Of a stretch of DNA of 20,000 nt, positions 3,750-19,486 are shown in pieces (the stretch's first letter is position 1; the number at the start of each line of letters is the position of its first letter). The translations under genes and the position numbers were made by a program. The notes beneath the pieces were generated by a model. The model was not told the DNA's origin and did no database searches. It saw only the letters and a program-made list of their open reading frames with translations. This stretch comes from an uncultured virus (IMG/VR IMGVR_UViG_2061766007_000155) (taxonomy: Duplodnaviria; Heunggongvirae; Uroviricota; Caudoviricetes): the IMG/VR virus record IMGVR_UViG_2061766007_000155; one strand, written 5' to 3'.

Positions 3750-3965
3750 GTGGACGAGAACGTCAGGTTCATGATGGAGAAGTTCGGCCTGGACGAGGAG
3801 AAGGCCCGCCTGGCAATAGAGAAGGGCTTCCGAGTGGAAGCCCTCCGCGACGGCTCTGCAATGCGTCAGTTTGTCGAGGATTCCGGTATCGCCGCCGGGG
3901 TGAACCGGGTGAAGCGGGAGATATCGAAGGCCACTAAATCATCCCGAGAAGGGTCTCCAGGATAG
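3750..3965 (+). CDS. Small hypothetical protein (71 aa)
   Basis: GTG start 1 nt after the gp62 stop; codon usage like its neighbours; 3' end overlaps the convergent gene by 32 nt. Confidence 0.55.
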   Translation: MDENVRFMMEKFGLDEEKARLAIEKGFRVEALRDGSAMRQFVEDSGIAAGVNRVKREISKATKSSREGSPG

Positions 3966-4836
3966 GCGACTCCTTGTCGTCCTTTTCAGTCGGCTTGCCG
4001 TTGGCGGCAGCCTGCGCGACCGGTGCGGCCGCGCTTATTTCTTTTTCTGAGCCCGGCGCAGGCTTTTCCGGTGCGGCCCCGGCGTTGACCGCGTCCTGCT
4101 GCTTCTGCGCAGTGGAGAGGTCCGGGGTGTCCGGGAGGTTCGACTGGGGTTCCTGCTGGACCGCCCCGGGGTTGACCTGGCCGTCCGGGCCGACCCCGTT
4201 CTGCTGGTCGACGGCCATGAGCTGTTCGTCGGTGACGGGCATCTGCGGGGTGTTGTCCACCGGGGGTTCCACGGCCGGTTCCGAGCCGAACGCGTACAGC
4301 ATCTGCTGCAGCCTCTCGTCGGGTGCGGCGTCGCCGTCCCCGTTGGCGAAGTCTACCAGGTAGTCCATCGGTGTCTTCTGGAGGGCGTCCTTGCATACCC
4401 AGGCGTTCCCCTCGACCTTGGAGTTCACGTTGTTGGGTATGGTCATCTCTATATAGCTCATGTTCTTGTCCAGGAGCTTCTGGATGAGGTCGTAGTTCAC
4501 CATCTGGGTGAACCGGCCAGTCGCGGCGAACACCAGCGAGTGCAGAACGGACTCGCCCTTCGAGTTGGTGCAGGTGAGGATTAGCGGGTCGATTTCCAGC
4601 AGGGTGTCGACCATGTTGTCCGCCCACATGTGGAGGGTGGTCGTCCATTCACCGTCGCCGAGGCTTACCCGGCGGGTGAACTGCATCGGGAACTGCCGGA
4701 GTGCCTGGCGGTTCTTCTCAGAGATTACCTCAACCTTCTTGTTGAGGAGGTCCTGGATACCCTCGATGAGGGCCAGTTCGTCCGGATAGGCGTCCTTCAG
4801 GCCGTTTATTCTCCTGTTGAGTTCCCTTTTGTCCAT
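3934..4836 (-). CDS. Ankyrin-repeat-like protein with an acidic Pro/Ala/Gln-rich tail
   Basis: GEWTTTLHMWA, NSKGESVLHSLV..YDLIQKLLD and DALQKTPMDYL resemble the ANK consensus G.TPLH.A...V..LL; low-complexity C-terminal ~110 aa; GGGGGT RBS. Confidence 0.6.
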   Translation of the reverse strand: MDKRELNRRINGLKDAYPDELALIEGIQDLLNKKVEVISEKNRQALRQFPMQFTRRVSLGDGEWTTTLHMWADNMVDTLLEIDPLILTCTNSKGESVLHSLVFAATGRFTQMVNYDLIQKLLDKNMSYIEMTIPNNVNSKVEGNAWVCKDALQKTPMDYLVDFANGDGDAAPDERLQQMLYAFGSEPAVEPPVDNTPQMPVTDEQLMAVDQQNGVGPDGQVNPGAVQQEPQSNLPDTPDLSTAQKQQDAVNAGAAPEKPAPGSEKEISAAAPVAQAAANGKPTEKDDKESPILETLLGMI

Positions 4837-4960: not shown

Positions 4961-5715
4961 ATGGCAACACGTATGGGAGCGCCCGGGGTACGCATTGAAC
5001 TCCACGACCGTTCCGGATATAGCCTGGTCGAGAACCCGAATGCGACTGCCGGTGTCGTTGGTTTCGCCCCGAGGGGCGAGCTGAACAAGATTCAGCTCCT
5101 TACCAACACCGCCCAGCAGGACACGTATTTTGGCCTCGGATTCAACAACAGTCGTTACAACCAGGGCATGTACGCGGCCCGCGCAGTCTTGAACGCGGGT
5201 GGCTACGTCGAGTTTGTGCGTCCATACGGCGAGGAAATCGACCGTACCGACGACTTCAAGCGTGACCTGAAGACGGATACCTTCGTGGTGTCCTTCGACC
5301 GTAACGCGGTCAACAACCCGGAAAACACGGCAAAGACCTCCATGAAGGTGGACTTCTTCGCCTCCACGAGGTACAAGACCGACGGTGCGGCAAGGTACGG
5401 CGTTACGCGTAAGATTAACAACGTCGCCGAGACCATCGTCAACAACAGCAACGTGAACTTCAACGTCGACGCTGCCGACGATGTGTTCAACGACAAGAAG
5501 AACTACGTCAGCAAGGGCGGTTCCGCACGTGGCGAGACCGACATGGTCATGTTCGCGTTGATGAACGCCGACCCGAGCGGTGCAAACCGTGCCTACACCA
5601 GCTTCGAAGTGGATACTGATTGGGACGGCATGGATGAATCTCATCGTGCGAATGGCGAGCTTACTGTCTTGCTTAAGGGTAAGGTCGGGTTTGCGGTAGA
5701 TGATATCGTATATGG
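4961..5715 (+). CDS. Tail sheath N-terminal fragment
   Basis: Conserved sheath N-terminal motif PGV.I...D.S; ends GFAVDDIVYG at an N-gap. Confidence 0.9.
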
Positions 5716-8700
5716 NNNNNNNNNNCAAGCGACTCATCTTTCTTCGGATTCCAGCTAAGGTACTTGAATGCTGCGGAATCATCCGATGCTACAAATACGC
5801 CATCAACAGCGACTGCAGGGGTAGTATTCTGAACATTGACCGGCACCATGACCGTGTAGTTGCCAATCATGTAGATGTCAGCGAACCCTTCAGTTACGGT
5901 AACCGTCAGGCCAGTAACATCAGACGTAGATGCTGTCGGAGGAACNNNNNNNNNNCCTGGATACGGACATGGAGGACGACGCTAATCGTGCTTCCGGCGA
6001 ACTTACCGTCGTTACCAAGGGCAAGGTCGGCTTCGCCATCGACGATATCGTCTACGGCCCGGCTTCCGGCCATGTTACCACAATCAGCACGTTCCGCGTA
6101 ACCAACATCGTGGACAAGATTGTTACGCTCAAGGCCGAGGACGAGCAGACCAAGACCAACCTGAATCTCAACTATAGTCCTAAAACGCTCCTCTATCACG
6201 ATGACGCCAACGCCATCGCCGACGGGTATGACTACCTGTCCGTCAAGACGGCAGTTGCCGGCCAGGGTGCCAAGACGTTCGGCTCCCTCCATCTCGACGA
6301 GGAAGGGCTCGCAAAGCTCAAGGCAATCCCGTCCGGAAGCTCCATCGTATTCCACGACCAGGACTCCAACGACGTGTATGTCCGCGTGGCCACCAAGGCG
6401 ACGATGAGTGGTACCATCTCCGCCGGCAGCGGCCAGGTCGCTACGGCAACGGTTGCTGCACCCGATTCCATCTGGGTCGGCGATACGATTATCGTCGGGT
6501 GGGATGACAAGTCCGCCAAGTTCAAGGTTACCGGNNNNNNNNNNCGATTCGTTTCGTGTACCCTCAAGGTCAAACCCAGCAATTAACCGAATAGTATAAA
6601 TACCGTCTTCAATCTTGACAACGGTACCATCGAGTGTCGTACCGGTCGCGGCGAAGGTTGCCGTTGCAGGTTGGTTCACCTTCAAATGCTTCGCGGTCGT
6701 AGTCGCCTTGACATCAATGTTTTTAACCGTGTACACCGGCATCACATCATCTTCAGCAGGAGTCTTAACAGCAGTCCTGAATGTCGTGCCGGTAATCTCT
6801 GCTGTAGCACCAGCTATCGTTGCCGCAACAGTGCCAGACGGCTGTTCGGTATCAGACGTTGGACGTTCACCTTCAGCATACGTGACAGTGAATTTTCCAT
6901 CATCGCCAACCGTAGCTGTCTTAGTGAAGCCCCCATTGTAAGTCACCGTAATTTCATCACCAGCCGNNNNNNNNNNCCAGGACGGAGAAACATTCCAGCT
7001 TACCTATGCCGGTGAAGATACCCTTGACCAGAGCATTTTTGCCGCCACCGAATTGACTATTGACAATACCGTTGCATCCACATGGGTCGACAGTGTCGGC
7101 ACGAAGGTGCTTACTGTCGGTAAAGAATCTACGGTCGCTGACGTGACCAACGACCTCGTCGCAATCATGCGCGGTGAGGAACTCGGTTACGGGCATGCAA
7201 ACATTCTCGGTGACATCGCCAAGAATGAAGACGGCACGCTCAGCATCAGCGAAGACAAGACCAGCGTCAAGCTCGCCCCGGGTGGCGCGCTCGAGTTCGT
7301 CACCGACGACATCGTTGCGATTACCCGCGCAAGCGTGGANNNNNNNNNNCGGTCGCAGTCATTGTTGCAGGAGAAGTGCATGTATCGGTAGACGCATACA
7401 CGACCTTGTTAGTCTGGGTCAAGTTGAGAAGCTGGAAGTTGAGTTCCGTGGCATCCACTGGAATTGTGTCAGAGACAATAGCATCGTAGAACTCGACCGT
7501 GTCCGTAATCGGGTCAGACTGCTTTACCTTACCAATCCACAGTATGTTGTCACCATCAAGGCCACTATCCTGACCTTCGGCAACGTTGAGGTTAACACTG
7601 GCACGAGTAATCGCGACAATGTCGTCGGTGACAAACTCGAGAGCGCCACCCGGTGTAAGCTTGAGCGTCTTCGAATCATAATCGATAGCCAGCTTTCCAT
7701 CAGTGTCCTTAGCTATATCACCGAGGATGTTGGCATATCCGTACCCGAGTTCCTCAGCACGCATAATGTCAACAATGTCGCTTGTCACGGAAGCCACAGT
7801 CGCATTATCTGCAACCGANNNNNNNNNNNNNNNNNNNNNTCAACCCAGTTGGCTGGCTGGACGTTCTTCAGGGTCCATTCCGTTGCATCGAAGATAGCCT
7901 CATCGAGAGCGCCTTCCCCATCGTAGGCAACCTGGAATTCAGAACCATCCTGACCAGTCACCTTGAAACGGTCAGTTTTGGTGGTAGTCTCAGTAGGTTT
8001 CCATACGATATCGACCTTATCACCAACCCACACCGCATCGGGGTCATCCACCGTTACAATGATAACATTATCGGCCTTTGACAGCGTAGCCTTCGTACCA
8101 GTAGTGTTAGCAATACGGACATAGACGTCGTTCGACTCCTGGTCATGGAACACAATGGAGCTACCGGACGGTATCGACTTCAGCACAGCCAGACCATCCT
8201 CGTTGAGGTGGAGTGAGCCGAAGGTCTTCGCACCCTGTCCGGCTACAGCAGTCTTGACGGTCAAATAATCATAGCCATCGGCAACCGCATTAGCATCATC
8301 GTGATACAGGAGAGTGGGGGGAACATAGCCAAGTGTTGCCACGTTGGTCTTCGTCTTGTCATCCTCCGCCTTCAAGGAAACTTCCTTGTCGACTATATTT
8401 GTCACGCGGAACGCACTCAGTGCAGTAGTCCGGCCTGCGGCAGGTCCATATACGATATCATCTACNNNNNNNNNNCCCGGACGGTGCAACCAAGCTCAAT
8501 TTCCAGTTGCTCAACCTGACACAGACGAACAAGGTAGTGTATGCCGCGACCGATACGTGCAAGACTCCTGCCGACTTGACTGTTTCAGCAGTTACCGGCA
8601 CGCCGACTTACACCAAGAAGACCGCCGGCAGTCTGGCCGTCTACAAGGTCATCGACATTAAGGGTACCGTAACGGATACGGGTTCGTTCACCGCAGACGA

Positions 8701-11700
8701 TACGATTACCGTTACCTATGCTGGCGTCACCGCAACGGGTACCGTCGATTCCGAAGGCAAGTTCACGGCCACGTTCGCCGAAGGCAGCGAGCCGACGACC
8801 TCCGAGGAACACCCGGTTGCACCTGTAACGGGCACAATCGGTGGGAATACGGTTGCTATCGACGCAACGGTGGAGAAGGCACAGACACCCGATACGCCTG
8901 AGGTGAAGCCAATCTATACCGTCACGAACCTCAAGGTTACTGTAACCACAGGTTCCGAGTACGTGAAGGCCAAGGACAAGGTGACTGCAACAATCACCGG
9001 CGTAACGGGCAAGGCAACCGGTTCCATCGACTCTGTCGGTGAAACTATCACGGCTGTCTTCGACAAGGTCGACGTGGAAGGCTCCATTGCTGATGGCGCC
9101 GATGTTCCCCCGGAAATTGCTGCCGGAGACATCACCAAGGCCACCGTCATGGTGTCCAAGGGCTACTCCGATATCTACATTATCGGCAACTACACGGTCA
9201 TGGTTCCTGTCAANNNNNNNNNNAGACGTCCGACCCGATTACCGACACCGTGACGTTCTACGACGCCATCGTGTCCGATGTGCTTCCGGCCGGCGCAACC
9301 AAGCTCAATTTCCAGTTGCTCAACCTGACGCAGACCAACAAGGTCGTGTACGCATCAACGGATACAGGCAAGCGTCCGGCGACGATGACTGTTAGCGATG
9401 TCAAGTATACCTACAAGAAGAAGTCCGATGGTAAGGATGCCGTTGCTGCCGTGTACGAAATCACGACAGTGACGGGTAGGGTTACTGATGCGGTTACCGG
9501 TGGTGAAATTGTCGAAGTGACTTACGATGGCAAGACTGCAAGCGGTGCCGTTGATGCAAACGGTAACTTCTCCGCAGCTTTTACCGACAAGCCGACTACA
9601 AGCTCAGCTCAGCCTACCTGCAATATCCAGCAGGGTACAATCAATGGTTCTACCGTGGCTATCTCCGGTGCAGCCTTCGTGACTGCAGAGAAGACCCCGG
9701 CCGAAGAAGCGGTCATGCCGGTGTACACCATCACCGCTATTGACGTTACCGCGACCACTACTGCAAAGTACATGTGCGCTGGTGACCAGGCTACGGCAAC
9801 GGTTACCGCCATTGGTGAATCTCGCGTTGGCGAAGTCACAAAGGTAAACGAGGACGATACCTATACGATTAGTCTCGAGGCCGGCTTCGACCTCGAAGGT
9901 ACTCGTAGCTCAGGTGCTGACGTGCCTCCTGCTGCCACGACTGGCTCTGTATCTGGTGTGACTGTTACTGTGACCGAAGGATACTCCGATATCTACATTA
10001 TCGGCAACTACACGGTCATGGTTCCTGTCAATGTGCAGAACAAGACCCCGGCTGTCCTGCTCGACGGCACGTTCGTCAAAGATGACGGCACGGCAGTGTT
10101 CAAGTACCTCAACCTGGTGGACAAACTCGTTGTCGACCACTCCGAGAAGGTCCTTACCGATACCAACATCGGTGCCACCTTCGTGGGTCTCGGTCTCGCC
10201 AACATCCGCTACATCGACGTCAACTTNNNNNNNNNNTCAGGACGGAGAAACATTCCAGCTTACCTATGCCGGCGAAGATACCCTTGACCAGAGCATCTTT
10301 GCTGCCGACGAATGGACTATCGACAATACCGTTGCATCCACATGGGTCGACAGTGTTGGCACGAAGGTGCTTACTGTTGGTAAAGAATCTACGGTCGCTG
10401 ACGTTACCAACGACCTCGTTGCAATCATGCGCGGTGAGGAACTCGGTTACGGGCATGCAAACATTCTCGGNNNNNNNNNNNNNNNNNNNNNNNNNNNNNN
10501 NNNNNNNNNNNNNNNNNNNNNNNNNNNNNNNNNNNNNNNNNNNNNNNNNNNNNNNNNNNNNNNNNNNNNNNNNNNNNCCTGGAACTCGATGCAGTAGGCG
10601 ATGGCGGTCTCGGCGAGGCCAACATCCTCTGGCTCGGCAAGGTGANNNNNNNNNNGGTGTACGACCTCACCGACGAGGGCGAGGCGGTCGCAAGGCTGTA
10701 TCTCTCCGTCGCCTACATGTACAACGGCGTTCTCTACGAGTTCGACGGTACCGTGGTGAAGTATGTCTACAATGACATGCAGCTCTACATCGGCGATTCC
10801 GCCGAAGTCGAACTGGAAGGTTCCGGTGTCTACTTCGTCCTGAACGACAGCGGCGTCATGGAAATGTTCCGCGAGGACAACTCCTACGACCTCTCCGCTA
10901 CGGTCGCCGGCGAAGTCCAGCTCGACGGAACCGTCAAGGCCATCCCGTCCAGCACGACGATTGCCCCGGCCTTCAACACGGAAGACCCGGCAATCATCAA
11001 CAACGCAGTCTGGACCTATGACCCGTTGAAGAACATGTCCACGAGCACGCTCTCCAACGCCTTCAACCTGTACCTCGACAAGGACAAGTCCGACGTGACC
11101 TTCTTCGTCGGTGCCGGTCTCGGCCTGAACAACTTCGGGCTGAAGGGTTACGAGACGCTCAACACCCAGCTCATGCAGGCTATCCTCAGTATCTGCGAAC
11201 TCCGTAAGGACTGCTTCGCTCTGTTCGACGGTGTGGCCGACGCCCGCATCGAGAAGGTGCTCAAGCTTGACTCTCCGGCAAGCCGCTTCGGTTCTGCCCT
11301 CGGCCGCTGGGGCGCAATCTATGACGCTCGCCCAATCTTCTACGATTCCATCATCACCAAGTCCAACGTGGAAATCGCCCCGTCCATCCCGATGGCTTCG
11401 CTCATCACGACGAACCGTAGGGCCGCAATCTTCTGGCATGTTCCGTCAGGCGAGGACACGGGTATGATTCCTGGCGCATGGTGCCGTAAGCTGAAGTACG
11501 AACGCAAGTTCAACTACCCGGAAGACCCGGATTCCGATATCGCAAGGCTTTGCGACATCCACGTGAACCCGTTCCGCTCCAACAAGAAGGGCATCTACTG
11601 CTACGGTGACTACACGATGCAGATGGAAGACACCGCGTTCAATGCGATTAACGTCACTATGCTCGTCGCAGGCATTCACAAGATGTTCTACAACTACCTC

Positions 11701-11994
11701 GACTCCCGCGTGTTCCGCATCAACACCACGGCTCTCCGTGCGCAGATTAGCGGTGACCTCCAGGATAAGCTCGACCAGTTCATGGCTGAAAACCCGGCCG
11801 GCCTGGAAGAGGGTAGCCACGTCATCTGTGATGACACCAACAACCCGCCGGAAGTCATCGAGGCCCATAAGCTCTATGTGGACCTGATGCTGTATCCGAC
11901 AACCAGTACCCGTTACATCTACCTGAGGACCAACGTTCTCAGCAGGACTAACGGGAACGTCATCTCAACCGACATCTCTACGGGTGCCCGCTAA
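4961..11994 (+). CDS. gp18: Contractile tail sheath protein (gp18-like), fragmented into multi-allele pieces; ~1,340 aa when collapsed
   Basis: N-terminus APGVRIELHDRS..AGVVGFAPRGELN..FG; C-terminus CELRKDCFALFD, PSIPMA, FWHVPSG, VNPF, YGDYT, INVTML, VICDDTNNPPEVIEAHKLYVDLMLYPT; followed by the tube gene. Confidence 0.92.
5726..5945 (-). CDS. Tail sheath internal fragment, inverted allele (piece 4)
   Basis: VPPTASTSDVTGLTVTVTEGFADIYMIGNYTVMVPVNVQNTTPAV aligns with the plus-strand fragment around 9922-10100. Confidence 0.85.
5956..6534 (+). CDS. Tail sheath internal fragment, alternative allele
   Basis: NRASGELTVVTKGKVGFAIDDIVYG...FKVTG overlaps the N-terminal fragment and parallels 8465-7840. 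Confidence 0.85.
6545..6966 (-). CDS. Tail sheath variable module, inverted allele (piece 3)
   Basis: EITVTYNGG..DGKFTVTY..KTPAEDDVMPVYTV..AGFDLEGTRN aligns with about 9500-9910. Confidence 0.85.
6978..7339 (+). CDS. Tail sheath internal fragment (near-identical copy at 10238-10470)
   Basis: QDGETFQLTY..EELGYGHANILGDIAK..LEFVTDDIVAITRASV. Confidence 0.85.
7350..7818 (-). CDS. Tail sheath internal fragment, inverted allele (piece 2)
   Basis: EELGYGYANILGDIAK..LEFVTDDIVAITRASV..NFQLLNLTQTNKVVYA. Confidence 0.85.
7840..8465 (-). CDS. Tail sheath internal fragment, inverted allele (piece 1)
   Basis: Begins with gtagatgatatcgtatatgg, identical to 5696-5715; VDDIVYGPAAG...FKVTGQDGSEFQV. Confidence 0.85.
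8476..9213 (+). CDS. Tail sheath variable module, allele 1
   Basis: Bounded by NFQLLNLTQTNKVVYA and GYSDIYIIGNYTVMVPV; Thr/Val/Gly-rich beta-strand pattern. Confidence 0.85.
9224..10226 (+). CDS. Tail sheath variable module, allele 2, plus downstream segment
   Basis: Same two boundary motifs with a divergent interior; continues to GLANIRYIDVN. Confidence 0.85.
10637..11994 (+). CDS. Tail sheath conserved C-terminal fragment
   Basis: Sheath C-terminal domain motifs (RKDCFA, VNPF, CDDTNNPPE). Confidence 0.92.
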
Positions 11995-12012
11995 TCAAAG
12001 GAGGATACATAA

Positions 12013-12759
12013 ATGGCGAACAAACCTTATGGCGTTGAAGTGACAGACAAGAAGAAGATTTTCTTCGCGTCTAACATCGACCACCTGCCGGACCCGGTGC
12101 GAAGCACCCGCTGGCGTCTCTGTGTGGACCAGGGTATCTTCAAGGCAATCGGCCTCAAGCCGACCAACGGTTATGGATTCGGTGAAACCCTCGCTAGCTC
12201 GAAGGAGTTCACCCTCCATATTTCCGATGGCGCCAAGATTCCTGATGCCGTCATCAAGTCCGAGCCAATCTGGTACATGGGCTACGAGAAGAAGTATCCC
12301 GTGCAACAGCAGCAGCTCGCCGGGACGACGACGCTCAACGCCCTCCTCCTCGAAGACGGCAGGGCTTACGAGACGATGCTTGCATGGAACCAGTGCTGCT
12401 TGAACAGCGGTATCCTCAACAAGACTGGCGAGGGGGACACGAACCCCGAGCGCAACCGTCTTGAAGTGGATAGCACGAACAAGCTGTACCTCGGCCTCGG
12501 CCAGCAGGAGAACTACCTGAACTCCACGGCGGTTCTCCTCCGTAACCACCACGTGACACTCGAGCTGTACGACTGGATGTACGGCAACGTAATCATGGGC
12601 ATCCGCTATATCAACGCATGGCCTTCCAAGGTCACCGTTGGCAAGACCCTCGATTACAGCAACGCCACGCTCATGAAGTTCGGCTTCGAGCTCACGTACG
12701 ACCGCTGGAACATCTGGTTCAACCCGGATTACAAGGTCATCAAGCCCGGCCAGCAGTAA
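12013..12759 (+). CDS. gp19: Tail tube protein (gp19-like)
   Basis: Directly after the sheath; DPVRSTRW, IPDAVIKSEPIWYMG, LELYD, NAWPSKVTVG.LDYSN..MKFGFELTYDRW typical of T4-like tube proteins; GGAGGA RBS. Confidence 0.88.
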   Translation: MANKPYGVEVTDKKKIFFASNIDHLPDPVRSTRWRLCVDQGIFKAIGLKPTNGYGFGETLASSKEFTLHISDGAKIPDAVIKSEPIWYMGYEKKYPVQQQQLAGTTTLNALLLEDGRAYETMLAWNQCCLNSGILNKTGEGDTNPERNRLEVDSTNKLYLGLGQQENYLNSTAVLLRNHHVTLELYDWMYGNVIMGIRYINAWPSKVTVGKTLDYSNATLMKFGFELTYDRWNIWFNPDYKVIKPGQQ

Positions 12760-12777
12760 TCTACAGGCAAAATCATC

Positions 12778-12809
12778 AAGGGGCCCGGTTTCCGGGCCCC
12801 TTTTCGTTT
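12778..12809 (+). terminator. Rho-independent terminator after sheath-tube operon
   Basis: GGGGCCCGG-TTT-CCGGGCCCC stem-loop followed by TTTTCGTTT. Confidence 0.9.
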
Positions 12810-12829
12810 GCATTTTGATATAAAAGTTT

Positions 12830-12856
12830 CTAGTTTTCCTGGCGAGGAAACCTATG
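12830..12856 (+). promoter_or_regulatory. CTAGTTTTCCT element forming a hairpin over the uvsY RBS
   Basis: TAGTTTTCCT-GGCG-AGGAAACCTA, 9 of 10 pairs, covering AGGA and the A of the ATG. Confidence 0.55.
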
Positions 12857-13372
12857 GCATCATTTCATATAGACGAAGACGCGATTAACGAGATGGTCGG
12901 CGACCAGAACGCCCCGGTGAACATCCAGATGCAGCGGCTGCGCTCCTGGTGTGCCGAGGCGTTGCGCACCACGAACGACTCCGGGGAACCGGACGCCAAC
13001 ATCGTGTACAAGCAGGGCAATTACAACATGGGCGAGAACGCCATCCATATCGCGATGCTCGCGTTCAAGAACAAGCTCAAGCTCATCGCCCTGAAGAAGG
13101 AATACTCCAAGAAGCGCTGCGAGGTCTACATCCGCATCTCCACCACCAAGCACAAGTGGATTCCCTCCAAGGAAGGGGAGACCATCATGGTGGAGGGTGA
13201 CCCGGACCTCGCCGACCTCAAGGAACGCCTGGAATGCCAGGAGGAGTTCGTGAAGTTCCTGGAGGACATACAGGACAAGATTAGGTACTACCCGAGGAAC
13301 GCCGACGCGATGACCAGGGTACACAACTTCGGCCAGGAAATCGGCCAGATTATAGTGGGGGTAAGAAAATGA
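12854..13372 (+). CDS. uvsY: Recombination mediator UvsY-like protein
   Basis: Helical 172 aa; K.G...MVEGDPDL..LKERLE.QEEFVKFLEDIQDKIRY..RN resembles the UvsY C-terminal pattern (aD.d...l..ki......fLe..lk.I..r...ikN). Confidence 0.7.
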   Translation: MASFHIDEDAINEMVGDQNAPVNIQMQRLRSWCAEALRTTNDSGEPDANIVYKQGNYNMGENAIHIAMLAFKNKLKLIALKKEYSKKRCEVYIRISTTKHKWIPSKEGETIMVEGDPDLADLKERLECQEEFVKFLEDIQDKIRYYPRNADAMTRVHNFGQEIGQIIVGVRK

Positions 13373-13659
13373 TAGGGAACGAGCAGTTCTGTAATGTATG
13401 CTGGCGAGACCAACGCGTTCAGCGACATGTTATACAGATGGTACCGAGATGTCCACATTGCGATGAACCGTACTCTATCAATCTTGACGGAAAGAATGTG
13501 AAGGGTGCGACTCCTGGGCAGACAACGACGGCTGAGTGTGGAAAGTGTGGAAAAGCGTTCAAGTACGTACTCTTTATGTCTCACTACCAAGAGACACCGG
13601 ACATTCCAATATTCAATGGCTTCACGGCCAAGGATGAGGACAGATTATCGGAGGAGTAA
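13369..13659 (+). CDS. Small Zn-ribbon protein; partial second allele at 13755-13956
   Basis: Three CxxC pairs: CNVC, CPHC, CGKC; ATGA overlap with the uvsY stop. Confidence 0.7.
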   Translation: MIGNEQFCNVCWRDQRVQRHVIQMVPRCPHCDEPYSINLDGKNVKGATPGQTTTAECGKCGKAFKYVLFMSHYQETPDIPIFNGFTAKDEDRLSEE

Positions 13660-13663
13660 AGAA

Positions 13664-14171
13664 ATGATTGGAAAGGGATTGCTTAAGATACTTGCCCGCA
13701 AGGGCTGGTGCAAGGACCCCGAAGCACAGGAGGAACTACCGGANNNNNNNNNNTTTGCGGTGAACCGTACTCTATCAATCTTGACGGAACGAATGTGAAG
13801 GGTGCGACTCCTGGGCAGACAGCGACGGCTGAGTGCGGAAAGTGTGGAAAAGCGTTCAAGTACATACTCTTCATGTCTCACTACCAAGAGACACCGGACA
13901 TTCCAATATTTAATGGCTTCACGGCCAAGGATGAGGACAGATTATCGGAGGAGTAAAGAAANNNNNNNNNNGCAGACCACGAGGGCCCTGGCGGAAGGGA
14001 AGAAGCCGGTAGTCGACGGGGTTCCCGTCGAACAGAAGAAGGCGGTACTCGGATGAGCGAACTGAACGAGAAGGATNNNNNNNNNNGCAGACCACGAGGA
14101 CCCTGGCGGAAGGGAAGAAGCCGGTAGTCGACGGGGTTCCAGTCGAACAGAAGAAGGCGGTACTCGGATGA
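13664..14171 (+). CDS. Small hypothetical protein, broken by gaps and duplicated fragments
   Basis: MIGKGLLKILARKGWCKDPEAQEELP (13664-13743) ... LAEGKKPVVDGVPVEQKKAVLG-stop (two copies, ending 14056 and 14171); GGAGGAG RBS; joining of the two halves is inferred. Confidence 0.5.
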
Positions 14172-14935
14172 GCGAACTGAACGAGAATGATACGGTTGAC
14201 GCCGAGACCGTGTTCGACGTGGACTTCACGTCAAACCCGGTATCCGCCGACAAGCCGAAGAAGGAGAAGCCCAAGCAGGTAACCCAGGAGAACCCGTTCG
14301 AGGGGGTCGAGGAGACGCTCGGCCTGCCGAAGGGCTCCACAAAGGAAGGGCTCGCATCGGCCAAGAAGGAAGTCAAGAGGATTACCGACGAGGCGAAGAA
14401 CCTCAAGACGCAGGCGAAGATTGTCGCCACCAAGCAGAAGATGGCGGAGTCGGACGACGGGCTCGTTCCCGGCTTCAGCCTGGAATCGCTCGAGGAGGAC
14501 CGCAAGGCTCTCCGTAACCACTACATGGAGCTGTTCGCTAGGGGCAAGAAGGTGCTCGACCGCATCGAGGAGGACCTGGAGGACCTGGTCAACCCGGAAC
14601 CGGACGACTACGCCAACTACCAGCGACAGTATGCAATCATACTGAAGACCCTGGACAGCATCCGGGAGACCCTGGTCACCCTCCGCAAGGAGGAGGAAAT
14701 CCATTCCCAGAAGACCACCGCCGCGGTGGGCCCGGGAGGGGCCGTCGCCGAGGCAGGCGCGGGCGGCACGAAGGTCAACGAGGACGGCTCGATAGAGGTC
14801 ACCGCACAGGACACCAACGCCTGGATTGCCAAGTGGACCGAGGAGCTCGACAAGGAGACCGCCGCGGACATCCAGAGGGAGTTCGACGAGCGCAACGCGC
14901 CGACGGCCATCGAGGACAAGTCCGGCACGCCATGA
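14168..14935 (+). CDS. Acidic coiled-coil protein, possibly small terminase subunit (gp16-like)
   Basis: EEDRKALRNHYMELFARGKKVLDRI....P....Y...LKTLDSIRETLVTLRK resembles the T4-like TerS two-helix core (DY...R.N...L...G...L.......P...E....L.K........L..L.K). Confidence 0.45.
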   Translation: MSELNENDTVDAETVFDVDFTSNPVSADKPKKEKPKQVTQENPFEGVEETLGLPKGSTKEGLASAKKEVKRITDEAKNLKTQAKIVATKQKMAESDDGLVPGFSLESLEEDRKALRNHYMELFARGKKVLDRIEEDLEDLVNPEPDDYANYQRQYAIILKTLDSIRETLVTLRKEEEIHSQKTTAAVGPGGAVAEAGAGGTKVNEDGSIEVTAQDTNAWIAKWTEELDKETAADIQREFDERNAPTAIEDKSGTP

Positions 14936-14945
14936 CGCATAAATT

Positions 14946-14956
14946 TTGCTATATTT
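14946..14956 (+). promoter_or_regulatory. Extended -10-like promoter motif TTGCTATATTT
   Basis: TGn-TATATT fits the sigma70 extended -10; identical 11-mer at 1999 and 15281/15997. Confidence 0.65.
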
Positions 14957-14995
14957 GTTTCATCATAAACAAAAACTCAACGAAAGGAATGAACA

Positions 14996-15226
14996 ATGTC
15001 TAAAAAAGTCGCATCCGCATGCTGCTGCTCCGTAGCCGACAAGGAAGCCAAGGCAACCATCAAGAAGCTCACCGCCGAAAACGCTAAGCTCCAGAAGGCC
15101 CTCGCCTCCGCCACGGCAAAGCTGGCAAAGAACTCCGAATCCGCCGCCACGAAGCTGGCTAAGGCACAGGATACCATCGCCAAGCTCAAGGATACAGTCG
15201 CCGCCCTCAAGGCCAAGAAGAAGTAA
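14996..15226 (+). CDS. Small basic Lys/Ala-rich coiled-coil protein with N-terminal CCC; extra alleles at 15327-15521 and 15745-15942
   Basis: MSKKVASACCCSVADKEAKATIKKLTAENAKLQKALASATAKLAK...; AAAGGA RBS, own promoter motif and terminator. Confidence 0.75.
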   Translation: MSKKVASACCCSVADKEAKATIKKLTAENAKLQKALASATAKLAKNSESAATKLAKAQDTIAKLKDTVAALKAKKK

Positions 15227-15251
15227 TTTTTCGGCTATTTCCATGACGATG

Positions 15252-15291
15252 ACGGTCGGCATCAGTGATGCCGGCCGTTTTTGCTATATTT
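15252..15291 (+). terminator. Rho-independent terminator whose T-tract runs into a TTGCTATATTT promoter motif (copies at 15547 and 15968)
   Basis: ACGGTCGGCATC-AGT-GATGCCGGCCGT-TTTT then GCTATATTT. Confidence 0.8.
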
Positions 15292-16041
15292 GGGGTTGAG
15301 CATCCCATACGAAAAGNNNNNNNNNNGCAACCGACAAGGAAGCCAAGGCAACCATCAAGAAGCTCACCGCCGAAAACGTTAAGCTCAATAAGGCCCTCGC
15401 CTCCGCCACGGCAAAGCTGGCAAAGACCTCCGAAACCGCAGCCACAAAGCTGGCAAAGGCACAGGATACCATCGCCAAGCTCAAGGATACCATCGCCGCC
15501 CTCAAGGCCAAGAAGAAGTAATTTTTCGGCTGTTTCCATGACGATGACGGTCGGCATCAGCGATGCCGGCCGTTTTTGCTATATTTGGTGTTGAGCATCC
15601 CATACGAAAAGGAGATTACCATGCCCATAGGATTAGTAGNNNNNNNNNNAACGGCCATCGAGGACAAGTCCGGCACGCCATGACGCGTAAATTTTGCTAT
15701 ATTTGTTTCATCATAAACAAAAACTCAACGAAAAGGAATGAACAATGTCTAAAAAAGTCGCATCCGCATGCTGCTGCTCCNNNNNNNNNNNNNNNNNNNN
15801 NNNNNNNNNNNNNNNNNNNNNNNNNNNNNNNNNNNNNNNNNNNNNNNNNNNNNNNNNNNNNNNNNNNNNNNNNNNNNNNNNNNNNNNNNNNNNNNNNNNN
15901 NNNNNNNNNNNAATCGCAGCCCTCAAGGCCAAGAAGAAGTAATTTTTCGGCTGTTTCCATGACGATGGCGGTCGGCATCAGCGATGCCGGCCGTTTTTGC
16001 TATATTTGGGGTTGAGCATCCCATACGAAAAGGAGATTACC

Positions 16042-17228
16042 ATGCCCATAGGATTAGTAGGCGACCTTCACCTCGGGCCGAAGTGCGAGCGTTCAGGAAT
16101 CAAGGAGCACGTGGTGGCCGGACAGGTCGCTTTGCACCAGAAGATGATTGCCGACTTCAGGGTGCGCGGTATCAAGACCGTCCTGTTCTCGGGTGACGTA
16201 TTTACAATCCACGCGTTCATGACGATAGAGGTGATGTCGTATGCAATCAAGCTGTTCCGCGACGACATGAAGGACTTCGATATCCACATCATCGCCGGCA
16301 ACCACGACTACCTCTACGAGAACAAGTCCTCCCTCAGCTCCCTGCAGCTCCTTGAGCTCATCCCGAACGTCCANNNNNNNNNNGTCCTCAATCCTCTACA
16401 TGGGAACCCCGTATCACCTGAGCTTCGCCCACGTGGACACGACGGCCGGATACTACGTNNNNNNNNNNGCTGGAGCTCCTCGGAAAGACCTGGTACATGG
16501 TGCCCTGGATTTTCCCGGACAAGATGGAGGCCACTAGCGAATGGCTGGCAAAGCTTGCAAAGAAGCCTAAGGCAACGAAGGCGAATACGGTATTGTTCGG
16601 GCATTTCGACATCATGGGCTGCCTGATGGAGGCCGGACAGATTTCCGAGGTCGGCCTGCCCGCCGAGAAGTTCTACAAGGCGGCGAACTACGTGTTCAGC
16701 GGCCATTACCACTGCCGTTCCTACAACAAGGGAAAGGACCCGGACGCCTCGATTCTCTACATGGGGACGCCGTACCACCTGAGCTTCGCCCACGTGGACA
16801 CGACGGCCGGATACTACGTCATCAATGACGACATGGGCATCGAGTTCATCGAGAACGACCTTTCCCCGAAGTTCGTCGACGTGGACGACGAGCACCTGGA
16901 GGGTCTCGGCGACCTGACCAACTGCTTCGTCCGCTACTACCACAGGAACGACCGGCCGTACGACGAGTCCAGCGCCCGCAAGAAGAGGCTCATGGAGTAC
17001 AAGCCGCTCTACGTCAAGAGCGTCCCTTACGGCGGTGACGTGGAGACAATCGAGGACGCCAAGAGGCTCGACGACGAGGAGGCACGGCAGCTCCTGAAGG
17101 CCGACAGCCTGACCATGGCCGAGATGTACATGGACCGCTACCCCGAACAGTTGCCCACTTTCTGGTCCGGCGAGGACCCGAAGCAGAAAATTTTGGGGAT
17201 TTTGGCCACCTACGGTAAAAAACTTTAG
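16042..17228 (+). CDS. gp47: Mre11/SbcD-family nuclease (T4 gp47-like); a stray duplicate fragment sits at 16384-16458
   Basis: Metallophosphoesterase motifs GDLHLG, SGDVF, AGNHD, FGHF, FSGHYH, YMGTPYHLSF; AAGGAG RBS. Confidence 0.9.
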
Positions 17229-17234
17229 TAAATG

Positions 17235-17312
17235 CACTAGTTTTCCTTGCAAAGAAGGTTACGGCAGCACAGATTGCTTTGCGCCGGGACACAAAGAGCA
17301 AGGAAACTAGTG
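17235..17312 (+). promoter_or_regulatory. Long inverted repeat sequestering the RBS of the downstream gene
   Basis: CACTAGTTTTCCTTGC (17235-17250) pairs with GCAAGGAAACTAGTG (17298-17312), 15 bp with one bulge; ATG at 17315. Confidence 0.7.
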
Positions 17313-17314
17313 AT

Positions 17315-19486
17315 ATGATGGATTTCTCCAAGAAAATCGAAGACCGGATTGCACAAATCCTGGAAACGAAGCGCGAATTCAACGTCCTCTACGTGACGGA
17401 CGACAATTCCCGTCTCGCATGCGTGCGCGGCTACAACGCCATGCAGCAGTTCAAGCAGTTCTACAGCTCCATCGCCGAGGTGACGCTCACCTCGATGGAC
17501 AGCAAGACTTTCTGCCGTACCAAGCCGGACCTCTCCGGCTACAGCGTCGTGTGGGTCGACAACATCATCAACCGCCAGTTCAACGACATCATGATGGAAC
17601 GCATGCGCGAAGCCTTCTCGAAGGTCGCACCGGGCTGGAAGGAAGAGGCCGAATCCCTCAAGGCCGACCAGGAAAAGTACGACGAGTACATGAAGGGCGC
17701 TAACGAGTTCCGTTCACTCACTCTCCGCGTAGTGTACGCGCTCGATGAATTTGTCTGGGATGCCCCGGCAGCCCGCAACAAGACCATTATCGAAGCCAAG
17801 CTCGTGGCAGACTGCCTCGACTACGCCGATACCATCGTTGTCCCGAATAACGAGCTCCGTACCGCCCTCGTGCAGCTCGAGCTCGTCGCCGAGGACAAGG
17901 ACGTCGTCATCATCCCGTCCTTCGTGTCAAGCTACTTCTACCCGACGCACAAGGTATTCCTGAAGTCCAAGGGCGGCTTCACCGCCATCCGCAAGCCGAA
18001 GATTCTCGTGAAGGGCACGGACATCCCGCAGAACGTCCAGAACCTCATCATCCACGGCACCGACGAATACGACTTCACCATCTCCACCGTGGCCGACCTC
18101 GACCCGCGCCTGATGGAACTCCTCCGTCCGCGCAGCAAGAAGGAAGGNNNNNNNNNNGCCCATCCTGAAGGTGAGCGCGGAATCGTCGTATACCCAGTAC
18201 AGCAGGTCTCCCGGTAGGGACGAGCGTACGATTACGTTGAGGAGGTGTTCCGGGAGGGTCCCGGCNNNNNNNNNNCTACGCCAAGTTCATGGACTCGGCC
18301 AACGAGTACCGTTCCCTGAGCCTTCGCGTGGTCTACGCCCTCGACGAGTTCGTGTGGGACGCCCCGGCAGGCCGCAACAAGACAATCGTCGAGGCCAAGA
18401 TGGTCGCGGNNNNNNNNNNNNNNNNNNNNNNNNNNNNNNNNNNCGAACAACGAGATGCGCACCGCGCTCGTCCAACTCGGCCTCGTGTCCGAGGAGAAGG
18501 ACGTGGTAATCATCCCGACCTTCGTGTCCGGCCAGTTCTACCCGACCCACAAGGTGTTCCTCCGTTCCGCCAACTCCTCCACGGTCATCCGCCGCCCGAA
18601 GATTCTCGTCAAGGGCACGGAAATCCCGAAGAACGTGCAGAACTTCATCATCCACGGCACCGACGAGTACGACTTCACCATCTGCACGGTGTCCGAGCTC
18701 GACCCGCGCCTGATGGAACTCCTCCGCCCGCGCAGCAAGAAGGAAGGACCGCTCGTCCGTCACATTATGCACTGGGCAAACCCGTACGTCACCAGCAAGA
18801 ACGCCATGGAGACCATGGCAATGGAACGTGACGCCGGTTTCGACTTCGTGCTCCTCACGGAACCCGAACATGTCGACGAGGATATCTACAACATCACCGA
18901 CACNNNNNNNNNNAACGGACATCCCGCAGAACGTCCAGAACCTAATCATCCACGGCACCGACGAATACGACTTCACCATTTCCACCGTGGCCGANNNNNN
19001 NNNNCGACACTGACGCAATCCTGGCCATCTCGTCCGGTTCCGTCGTGTTCGCCCAGATTGCCGAGGCCGAGTTCGCACCTGGCGTGCACATCTGCAACGA
19101 ATGCGGCAAGGACTTCGTGTTNNNNNNNNNNTGACACCGACGCAATCCTGGCAATCTCGTCCGGTTCTGTCGTGTTCGCCCAGATTGCCGAGGCCGAATT
19201 CGCACCTGGCGTGCACATCTGCAACGAATGCGGAAAGGACTTCGTGTTCGGCACGGACACGAGCGTCAAGGAACTCATGGCCATGCTCGAGAAGTGGCGA
19301 ATCACCGTCAACTGGGACGAGGCCTACACCAAGCAGCGCACCCTCCTCGAACACCGCCTGGTGTCCGACCCCCAGGTGCTCGCGGGATACTTCCACGCGA
19401 TGCTCGGCAAGCGCGTGAGCTCCGAACTCAAGACCAAGTTCGACGCCGCCACGGCTAAACTGAAGGCAAAGAAGCAGGAAGAATAG
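17315..19486 (+). CDS. GT-B-fold glycosyltransferase-like protein (divergent), multi-allele fragments; ~445 aa collapsed
   Basis: NVLYVTDD..ACVRG, RVVYALDEFVW, ADTIVVPNNEL, DVVIIPSFV, DFVLL....DIYN...AISSG parallel GT4-like motifs (vvyDiDD, aD.v.vst..L, v.viPN, FN..KS..K.lE...G). Confidence 0.5.
18158..18265 (-). other. Orphan coding fragment between N-gaps, unrelated to the flanking gene
   Basis: Minus strand reads AGTLPEHLLNVIVRSSLPGDLLYWVYDDSALTFRMG; may belong to the minus-strand gene at the window's right end. Confidence 0.45.

Follow-up and report, generated by a model that had tools for sequence, protein, structure and literature searches.

Introduction

In T4-type phages, homologous recombination at conserved junctions swaps the variable, surface-exposed segments of mosaic tail-fiber adhesins and hyperplastic regions, and host-range variation is usually sought in fibers and baseplates. 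Each tail contains well over a hundred copies of the sheath protein, whose gene is commonly regarded as a conserved marker. In flagellin, a protein unrelated to the sheath, the N- and C-terminal ends form the core of the filament and the exposed central domain is highly polymorphic and exchanged by recombination; the selective agents are known to be immunity and phages. The analogy between flagellin and sheaths is drawn in a sheath survey (Evseev et al., 2022; PMC9230969), which describes multi-domain (“type 3”) T4 gp18-type sheaths with a conserved core made from N- and C-terminal parts and extra, mostly beta-rich domains inserted in this core, away from the tube. More such domains are found in phages with large genomes (PMC9230969). 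The survey compares distant phages and proposes a gradual acquisition of domains, and the word “recombination” is absent from its text (Evseev et al., 2022). Hoc-like decoration domains with Ig-like folds are horizontally mobile, and weak carbohydrate binding has been suggested for them (Fraser et al., 2006, cited in PMC9230969). Our literature search returned no paper on allelic cassette exchange within a sheath gene, which is not proof that such exchange is unpublished.

We analyzed a 20,000-nucleotide stretch (hereafter, the window) from an uncultured Caudoviricetes virus (IMG/VR IMGVR_UViG_2061766007_000155) that carries divergent versions of a module inside a sheath gene. The original prediction, made from the sequence without database searches, held that a phage population shuffles this module as a surface-display cassette by recombination at flanking DNA anchors. 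As in type 3 sheaths, the C-terminal part of the protein matches T4 gp18 and the relatives are carried on contigs of up to 466 kb. Unlike the distant phages compared in the survey, the genomes studied here are 87-99% identical, their outer sheath domains are the main island of divergence and old alleles appear to be swapped as blocks. Whereas the known mosaic systems of T4-type phages involve fibers, adhesins and accessory genes, here the protein is the sheath. The module resembles Hoc-type domains in being an accessory beta-rich surface domain that would move horizontally between phages, but it is inserted within an essential protein and is neither a stand-alone decoration protein nor an extension at a terminus.

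Sheath alleles in a gapped scaffold

The window consists of 31 short pieces scaffolded together across 30 runs of N, 26 of them exactly 10 N long. Sheath sequence occupies 12 of the 31 pieces and represents three types of allele, of which A resembles L001, B resembles L002 and C resembles P0006, L001, L002 and P0006 being related sequences. The features are as follows, with V1 denoting a variable block upstream of the module.

4961..5715, plus strand: N-terminal core of the sheath, aa 1-251; nearest to the type C relative P0006 (96%), with L001 at 93%
5727..5945, minus strand: type C right anchor and following stretch (P0006 aa 800-872, 94.5%)
5957..6532, plus strand: type A variable block V1 (L001 aa 217-408, 95%)
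6545..6964, minus strand: type C module (P0006 aa 652-791, 91%; L002 only 50%)
6978..7337, plus strand: type A middle part (L001 aa 410-529, 98%)
7351..7818, minus strand: type C middle part with the left anchor at its end (P0006 aa 462-617, 98.7%)
7842..8465, minus strand: type C variable block V1 (P0006 aa 246-453, 97.6%)
8477..9211, plus strand: type A module, from within the left anchor to the right anchor (L001 aa 574-814, 89% amino acid and 92% DNA identity)
9226..10224, plus strand: recombinant piece, with type A flanks (9224-9329 and 9982-10226) and a type B module (9330-9981); bridged in sequencing run X3
9295..9329, plus strand: left anchor, 35 nt identical to 8486-8520, coding for part of the conserved strand motif QLLNLTQTNK
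9982..10031, plus strand: right anchor, 50 nt identical to 9164-9213, coding for the conserved strand motif DIYIIGNYTVMVP
10238..10468, plus strand: middle part, second type A copy (L001 aa 410-486, 97%; 95% DNA identity to 6977-7210)
10578..10645, plus strand: type A fragment of 68 nt that in L001 lies directly before the left flank (98.5%)
10657..11994, plus strand: conserved C-terminal core of the sheath, 445 aa, single copy in the window, with phrog_23 and gp18 matches
12013..12759, plus strand: probable tail tube gene, from its position directly 3' of the sheath and a weak match to Pfam Phage_T4_gp19

The three divergent module versions described originally (8476-9213 and 9224-10226 on the plus strand, and 6545-6966 plus 5726-5945 on the minus strand) were confirmed at these coordinates. 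Each version is exactly one piece bounded by N runs. Thus, the versions are separate scaffold contigs, some of them reversed, and not one DNA molecule. The final 20 nt of the N-terminal piece (4961-5715) are the exact reverse complement of 8446-8465, where a type C piece begins. The ends shared exactly by the two plus-strand versions (the anchors) are a sign of co-assembly, as are the gap-bounded copies, the single module per gene in all 20 complete relatives and an assembly bubble in sequencing run X1 (see below). Allelic redundancy at 72-98% identity also extends beyond the sheath (e.g., 1-833 versus 844-1648, and 16469-18147 versus 18444-18903). With one piece per version and single-module relatives, the triplication reflects co-assembly and is neither a tandem repeat nor a store of cassettes. 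Related phages contributed the three versions, which are alleles of a single giant tail-sheath gene that were stitched into a gapped scaffold. The idea that shuffled cassette copies lie together in one genome was therefore abandoned, and for versions A and B the contiguous relatives, with one module per gene, also contradict tandem repeats within a gene. The sheath C terminus and tube had been described as single copies; the window holds no second copy of 10656-13743, except for a 207-nt duplicate at 13754-13961.

A T4-type sheath with variable, putatively outer domains

The C-terminal core of the sheath matched phrog_23 (“tail sheath”, E 1.9e-28) and phrog_10581 (E 3.2e-17). Annotated gp18 genes matched this core at 26-28% identity (tblastn, E down to 1e-13), and positions 950-1242 of the family profile matched T4 gp18 chains at 354-641 (E 3e-13). 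By homology of its C-terminal domain, the gene is thus predicted to encode a contractile tail sheath of the T4 gp18 type. The five best Foldseek matches of a whole-protein model of the relative L014 were all T4-type sheaths (E 9e-7 to 3.8e-4), but with TM scores of 0.08-0.16; the model has a mean pLDDT of 63.8, falling below 50 in the core. The open reading frame at 12013-12759 matched Pfam Phage_T4_gp19 with an E of 0.0059 and 16.9 bits, below the cut-off of 28.2, and had no match in PHROGs.

All 23 related viral loci that we identified have 0 N. Of these, 20 have a complete sheath frame (1174-1392 aa) that contains a single module, with no additional copy in the gene; the remaining 3 are truncated at contig ends. 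The related sequences all come from metagenome assemblies. Close type C DNA was absent from the metagenome scan (best match, 69%), and a scan of genome contigs with the type C V1 piece returned no relative. Conservation is high over residues 1-230 and 851-1331 and low between them, a pattern that fits a core built from N- and C-terminal parts. We propose one large sheath of about 1330-1360 aa whose conserved core would comprise the N-terminal ~200 and C-terminal ~480 residues. The extra domains in the middle would form three independently varying blocks: V1 (aa ~205-490), the module (~600-795) and V3 (~815-850). The module (L001 aa 614-793), located between two conserved strands, is the least conserved part of the protein in a comparison of 42 relatives. 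Its mean pairwise identity is 6-11% versus 46-78% over nearly all of the core (17 sequences), and nine sequences with 96-100% identical C termini have 6 module types with a mutual identity of at most 65%.

The module was modeled as an all-beta structure of ~200 residues (pLDDT 80-96) and may be an autonomous unit held between the two conserved long strands, or “anchors.” The best Foldseek matches were the C region of Bap (E 8.1e-4, probability 0.92) and an RTX adhesin (E 3.4e-3), at TM scores of only 0.12-0.23. VIA-align placed efflux adaptor beta-barrel domains first (Z 8.5, 86 aligned residues), a match that the tool rates as middling. Pfam Big_6 reached a non-significant E of 0.069 on one module allele, and an Atlas lead to an Ig-like cluster scored 0.77, under the trust level. 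Searches of the PDB (Foldseek), PDB representatives (VIA-align) and BFVD yielded no decisive fold match for the module, and the Ig-like or lectin fold anticipated in the original prediction is not established. By tblastn, it had no match among 50,697 phage records; the middle pieces matched nothing in Pfam or PHROGs at E 0.01, and a lenient Pfam scan gave no significant match. We infer that the module lies on the tail exterior; because the core of the whole-sheath model is of low confidence, this outward position follows from the core-plus-insertion topology of sheaths and the literature and not from the model.

Recombinant junctions at the anchors

The two anchors quoted in the original prediction are exact repeats that had 0 matches in 200 shuffles, and the plus-strand versions do differ strongly between them (35-58% identity in 60-nt windows). 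The anchors are near-identical within the window because the piece with the type B module has type A flanks. Between L001 and L002 they are only moderately conserved in DNA, with dS values of 0.93 and 1.16. In the recombinant piece (9224-10226), 68 of the 69 informative sites in the flanks are of type A, and 289 of the 303 in the module are of type B. Counted along the piece, the ratios of type A to type B sites are 21:0 on the left, 3:0 in the left anchor, 14:289 in the module, 6:0 in the right anchor and 38:1 on the right. The type therefore switches at the two anchors, where identity also changes sharply and where breakpoints had been predicted. This A-flank/B-module piece is mosaic linkage between versions A and B, and for this pair the notion of alternative modules exchanged at the anchors of one backbone held. 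It did not extend to type C, which differs from A over aa ~210-850, well beyond the module.

Mosaics of this kind could also be a pure assembly artifact, in which distinct phages each retain their own flanks and the assembler creates chimeras at conserved stretches. The window is indeed a jumble of co-assembled variants, interrupted by N gaps and with some pieces in reverse orientation, and the metagenomic origin of every relative favors this explanation too. We nonetheless consider it unlikely. Identical runs of DNA common to L001 and L002 measure at most 20 nt in this kilobase and at most 14 nt at the left junction, and are thus too short for a k-mer graph to mis-join the two types. Furthermore, allele phasing in the contigs of public sequencing runs recovered two modules between common flanks in one run, X1: a flank contig (depth 28.5) forks into two module contigs (11.5 and 24.5) that then merge (32), so that the depths of the branches add up to about that of the flank. 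X1 may derive from the very sample that yielded the window. Two contigs of X3, a run of another study, span both A-flank/B-module junctions and are unbranched at k=31. Runs X6 and X7, from a third study, have the same flanks and, as they carry the other module, do not cover 9394-9971 at 90% likeness. The linkage evidence comes entirely from short-read assemblies and phases the runs over at most about 1 kb. The recurrence of block patterns across several independent contigs also counts against an artifact.

Divergence along the sheath gene

Estimates of dS between L001 and L002 were 0.29 and 0.15 at the ends of the gene, 1.50 in V1 and 3.2 in the module, where dN/dS was 0.19. The analysis of divergence along the gene, as proposed with the original prediction, revealed a module dS that is saturated and 10-20 times that of the conserved ends of the same gene pair. 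Saturation in the module next to values of 0.15-0.29 at the ends indicates that old alleles have been moved by recombination. The module alleles are also separated by many indels.

Blocks vary independently in other pairs. P0004 and P0005 are ~100% identical outside aa 205-490; of the clade-variable columns, 94 of 185 in V1 differ between them versus 10 of 201 in the module (p 4e-26), and for P0009 and P0010 the numbers are 129 of 204 versus 15 of 195 (p 1e-33). The mosaics among these four sequences are seen at the protein level only, and assembly chimeras could be among them. Some pairs combine a 93-95% identical module with a V1 that is half different, and the converse was also found. AU tests on the V1 tree did not reject keeping module-defined pairs together (p 0.137, 0.328 and 0.127). 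Formal tree incongruence is therefore not shown, and the evidence for mosaicism is the block-wise difference in divergence. In the comparison of L002 with L029, identity was 87-99% in 20 of 20 upstream windows of 300 nt and 56-85% in seven windows over the variable middle. Identity also reaches a local minimum at this position in a second lineage (L006 and L007). Additional islands of divergence nearby (L001 nt 1334-1933 and 11620-12114) indicate that the sheath is not the sole mosaic spot. Over the 12-20 kb compared, in genomes otherwise 87-99% identical, the island of the outer sheath domains is at least as sharp as any. Comparably low identity occurs only in a short stretch ~4 kb downstream, which is unscorable in the closest pair.

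Fast point mutation of the outer domains under positive selection, with no block exchange, would explain why the module is least conserved at every depth of comparison, and less constraint is expected on exposed domains. We regard this explanation as very unlikely, given a dN/dS of 0.19 at such an excess of dS over the ends of the same genes, the many indels, the near-identical modules beside half-different V1 blocks (and the reverse) and the sharp switch in identity at the anchors. Programmed variation in one genome, by a diversity-generating retroelement or by invertible or shufflon cassettes with silent copies, is considered highly improbable: although the window has several module copies with common conserved ends, some inverted, N gaps separate them, they are the only module repeats in the window and are these allelic pieces, the 20 complete contiguous relatives have a single module, and the alleles differ by indels and saturated synonymous change rather than adenine-directed substitution. 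The window contains no near-identical template copy for a retroelement, only divergent allelic pieces on separate contigs. An invertible or shufflon cassette is disfavored as well, as the inverted copies are on separate contigs and the contiguous relatives lack spare copies in the sheath gene.

Implications for T4-type phages

The best explanation for the locus, to which we assign a probability of roughly 80%, is that contigs of at least three related T4-type phages were co-assembled and that these phages exchange sheath domains as blocks. The contigs would derive from co-occurring, closely related, uncultivated phages and would have been placed side by side in the gapped scaffold. Homologous recombination at conserved junctions would swap the blocks among related phages, with the result that old, deeply diverged module alleles circulate among nearly identical backbones. 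The many alleles may have persisted over the long term through selection on a surface interaction. Weak multivalent adhesion would be the most likely such interaction, with escape from a host sensor as an alternative.

Short-read assemblies break in regions of this type, and scaffolding of the allelic contigs can then create false duplications resembling repeats or cassette stores. The system also offers a simple test bed for the role of the extra domains of sheaths. Old outer-domain alleles exchanged as blocks point to selection on the tail surface itself. A broader and tentative reading, which we consider possible but doubtful, is that in these large uncultivated gut phages the outer domains of the sheath form a balanced polymorphism, much like flagellin or O-antigen types, and that the sheath surface is a determinant of host range or survival. 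Frequency-dependent selection would then maintain many ancient alleles, which would be reshuffled among near-identical genomes. The sheath, with hundreds of copies on a long tail, could serve as a multivalent first-contact adhesin for variable glycans of the host or habitat, or its surface may be the part of the virion that is sensed by host defense.

Assembly of the window and identity of the sheath gene

The window contains 30 N runs, 26 of them of exactly 10 N, which divide it into 31 pieces. The original prediction had recognized three versions of a module in the tail sheath gene, and the coordinates assigned to them (8476-9213, 9224-10226, 6545-6966 and 5726-5945) are exactly four of these N-bounded pieces. 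When we compared all the pieces against each other with blastn, redundancy was evident throughout the window and beyond the sheath gene (1-833 and 844-1648, 72.5%; 14087-15316 and 15327-15639, 95%; 16469-18147 and 18444-18903, 84%), and many genes have allelic duplicates that are 72-98% identical. Thus, given the redundancy and the N-bounded pieces, the record is a scaffold in which variant contigs from a mixed population were set end to end, some of them reversed. The three module versions are real and lie where predicted, but as N-bounded, co-assembled alleles rather than as parts of one genome. False duplications would inflate any gene count or repeat analysis based on the record.

The piece at 10657-11991 matches PHROG tail-sheath families (phrog_23, E 1.9e-28) and is 26-28% identical to gp18 genes annotated in cyanophages and rhizobiophages. 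Further, the sheath family profile matched T4 gp18 chains at E 3e-13, its positions 950-1242 corresponding to residues 354-641 of gp18. Among the neighboring genes are a clamp loader, an SbcD-like nuclease and a ThyX-like protein, which identifies the phage as a distant T4-type one. Upstream of the sheath gene and on the opposite strand is a 300-aa ORF (3934-4836, minus strand) whose C-terminal half is rich in proline, alanine and glutamine and which had no match in Pfam or PHROG. A scan of viral contigs retrieved 24 related loci, 23 of which were analyzed. None of the 23 has N runs, in 20 the open frame is complete, at 1174-1392 aa (contig ends cut the other three), and there is one module per sheath gene. 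The single module in these contiguous relatives rules out a tandem repeat or a cassette store as the source of the three copies in the window.

We assigned the pieces to three sheath alleles, named after relatives L001 (type A), L002 (type B) and P0006 (type C). Two other blocks of the gene, V1 (aa ~205-490) and V3 (aa ~815-850), vary independently of the module in relatives.

Sheath gene pieces of the window and identity to the relative that names each type
4961-5715, N-terminal sheath piece, closest to P0006 (type C), 96%
5727-5945, minus strand, type C, V3 piece, 94.5%
5957-6532, type A, V1 piece, 95% (aa)
6545-6964, minus strand, type C, 91%
6978-7337, type A, 98%
7351-7818, minus strand, type C, 98.7%
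7842-8465, minus strand, type C, V1 piece, 97.6%
8477-9211, type A module piece, 89%
Inside 9226-10224, type B module, 87% across the entire piece
10238-10468, type A, 97%
C-terminal sheath core, type A, 98%

Within the type A module, two 60-nt windows at 8839-8890 are 70-74% identical to L001 versus 82-100% elsewhere, a local dip that hints at sub-block mosaicism.

Evidence for module exchange at the conserved anchors

Comparison with L001 and L002 in 60-nt windows identified piece 9224-10226 as a recombinant carrying a type B module between type A flanks.

Identity of piece 9224-10226 to L001 and L002, and informative sites (type A:type B)
First 60-nt window, at the alignment edge: 85% to L001, 67% to L002
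Windows starting at 9245 and 9275: 95-98% to L001, 67-77% to L002
9335-9970: 33-70% to L001, 88-100% to L002
9972-10226: 93-100% to L001, 58-90% to L002
Informative sites: left flank 21:0; left anchor 3:0; module 14:289; right anchor 6:0; right flank 38:1

The switches between types fall within 9321-9336 and 9982-9987, inside the two conserved anchors where recombination breakpoints had been predicted. The anchors are identical between this piece and the type A piece (35 nt and 50 nt) because piece 9224-10226 has type A flanks. The longest identical runs between L001 and L002 do not exceed 14 nt near the left junction or 20 nt across the whole kilobase, too short for such parents to have been mistakenly joined in a k-mer graph.

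Public sequencing runs were compared as Logan contigs (k=31), with linkage spanning only a few hundred bases per side. Run X1, in which 0.93 of the sampled words were present, may be the window's own sample. In it, a flank contig (depth 28.5) stops at 9329 and two contigs begin at 9300: one (depth 11.5) is the type B module with zero differences and the other (depth 24.5) carries 600 letters of different sequence from 9372 to 9982, where the second flank contig (depth 32) begins. This is a bubble of two modules between common flanks, their depths adding up. Two contigs of X3, from another study, cover 9224-9655 (8 differences) and 9631-10226 (15 differences) and bridge both junctions of the form with type A flanks and type B module. 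In X6 and X7, which come from a third study, the same flanks carry the other module, and the sequence of a loose end before 9982 agrees with how the window's type A module ends. Independent contigs and runs thus support the predicted swappable surface module, exchanged at the anchors, for types A and B. Type C differs over the whole variable middle.

Divergence of the blocks among relatives

The DNA of L001 and L002 around the sheath gene is mostly 85-99% identical, but identity is down to 72% across the middle of the sheath and 51-62% in the module. Similarly, L002 and L029 are 87-99% identical upstream (20 of 20 windows of 300 nt) and 91-99% downstream, with 56-85% in seven 300-nt windows across the variable middle. 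Between L001 and L002, dS is 0.29 (aa 1-200), 0.15 (aa 1001-1331) and 1.50 (aa 205-490), and reaches 3.2 (saturated; dN/dS 0.19) in the module. With dS so far above that of the conserved ends, the alleles are much older than the backbone that carries them.

The blocks also diverge separately. P0004 and P0005 have ~100% identity in aa 1-200 and 490-1331 yet 41-85% in aa 205-490; the modules of P0009 and P0010 are 93% identical, whereas identity is 12-75% over aa 210-470 and 33-50% over aa 818-845. For clade-variable columns, Fisher tests returned p 4e-26 and 1e-33, respectively, and no block contrast in the control pair L002/P0003. In the module tree these pairs have support of 100/99 or above; the star-like V1 tree does not recover them, and AU tests on V1 did not reject the module-tree pairs (p 0.137, 0.328 and 0.127). 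Hence, the argument for exchange rests on block-wise divergence and not on tree conflict.

Two other regions of the window also vary. A second divergence island lies at 1-1648 (L001 nt 1334-1933), where L001 and L002 are 71-76% identical within surroundings of ~95%, and where the DNA of two alleles of the ThyX-like gene (Pfam Thy1, E 8e-6) is only 72.5% identical. The region 15001-16500 (L001 nt 11620-12114) has a GC content of 0.43-0.44 versus 0.50-0.60 elsewhere, a gap of 131 N and several overlapping pieces that are almost identical; there L001 and L002 are 63-76% identical and L029 apparently has an indel.

Module diversity and predicted structure

Among 17 distinct full-length sheaths, mean pairwise identity is 46-78% nearly throughout aa 1-230 and 851-1331, and 6-11%, with 39-69% gaps, in the module (L001 aa 614-793). 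A large protein search added 25 distinct sheaths. Nine of the resulting 42 have C-terminal cores 96-100% identical and carry six module types no more than 65% identical to each other. Module length ranges from ~57 to ~250 residues across the family, and a second lineage has a similar but milder identity dip at this position. The contigs that carry relatives P0006, P0009, P0026 and P0016 are 351-466 kb long, and very large phage genomes are therefore probably present in the group. NCBI lists P0006 under a Fibrobacter sp. MAG, as a hypothetical protein, which gives no more than a hint of the host.

An AlphaFold model of 9226-10224 from a 19-row alignment is all beta, with pLDDT 80-96 over most of residues ~45-255 and below 50 in the flanks, as expected because the parent domain is missing. 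Among solved structures, Foldseek ranked adhesin repeats highest, at low TM (E 8.1e-4 for the Bap C region and 3.4e-3 for an RTX adhesin). VIA-align favored beta-barrel domains of efflux adaptors and MreC over ~66-101 residues (Z 7.1-8.5, a range that the tool itself rates middling), BFVD returned weak matches to phage structural proteins, and Pfam and Atlas yielded no firm family. As no match was decisive, we describe the module as a predicted all-beta insertion without a firm fold class. The family-conserved stretches that bound it (QLLNLTQTNK and DIYxIGNYTVxVP) form long strands (598-617 and 670-690) in the whole-sheath model of L014, a related locus, whose five best PDB matches are T4-type sheaths despite a poor core (mean pLDDT 63.8).

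Implications

T4-type phages recombine readily in co-infection, and the window has a gene for an SbcD-like nuclease, a type of enzyme that takes part in such recombination. Most probably, structural constraint keeps the junction strands similar enough to serve as crossover sites, and the autonomous domain between them can be replaced without upsetting the core of the tube-binding sheath. Extra sheath domains are, in one account, placed away from the tube, with suggested roles in adhesion or virion stability (PMC9230969). The many old alleles on near-identical backbones, together with the milder dip in the second lineage, suggest that a surface interaction is under balancing or frequency-dependent selection. 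This case is a variant of two known phenomena, multi-domain sheaths and mosaic exchange of exposed phage domains, in a protein usually held to be conserved.
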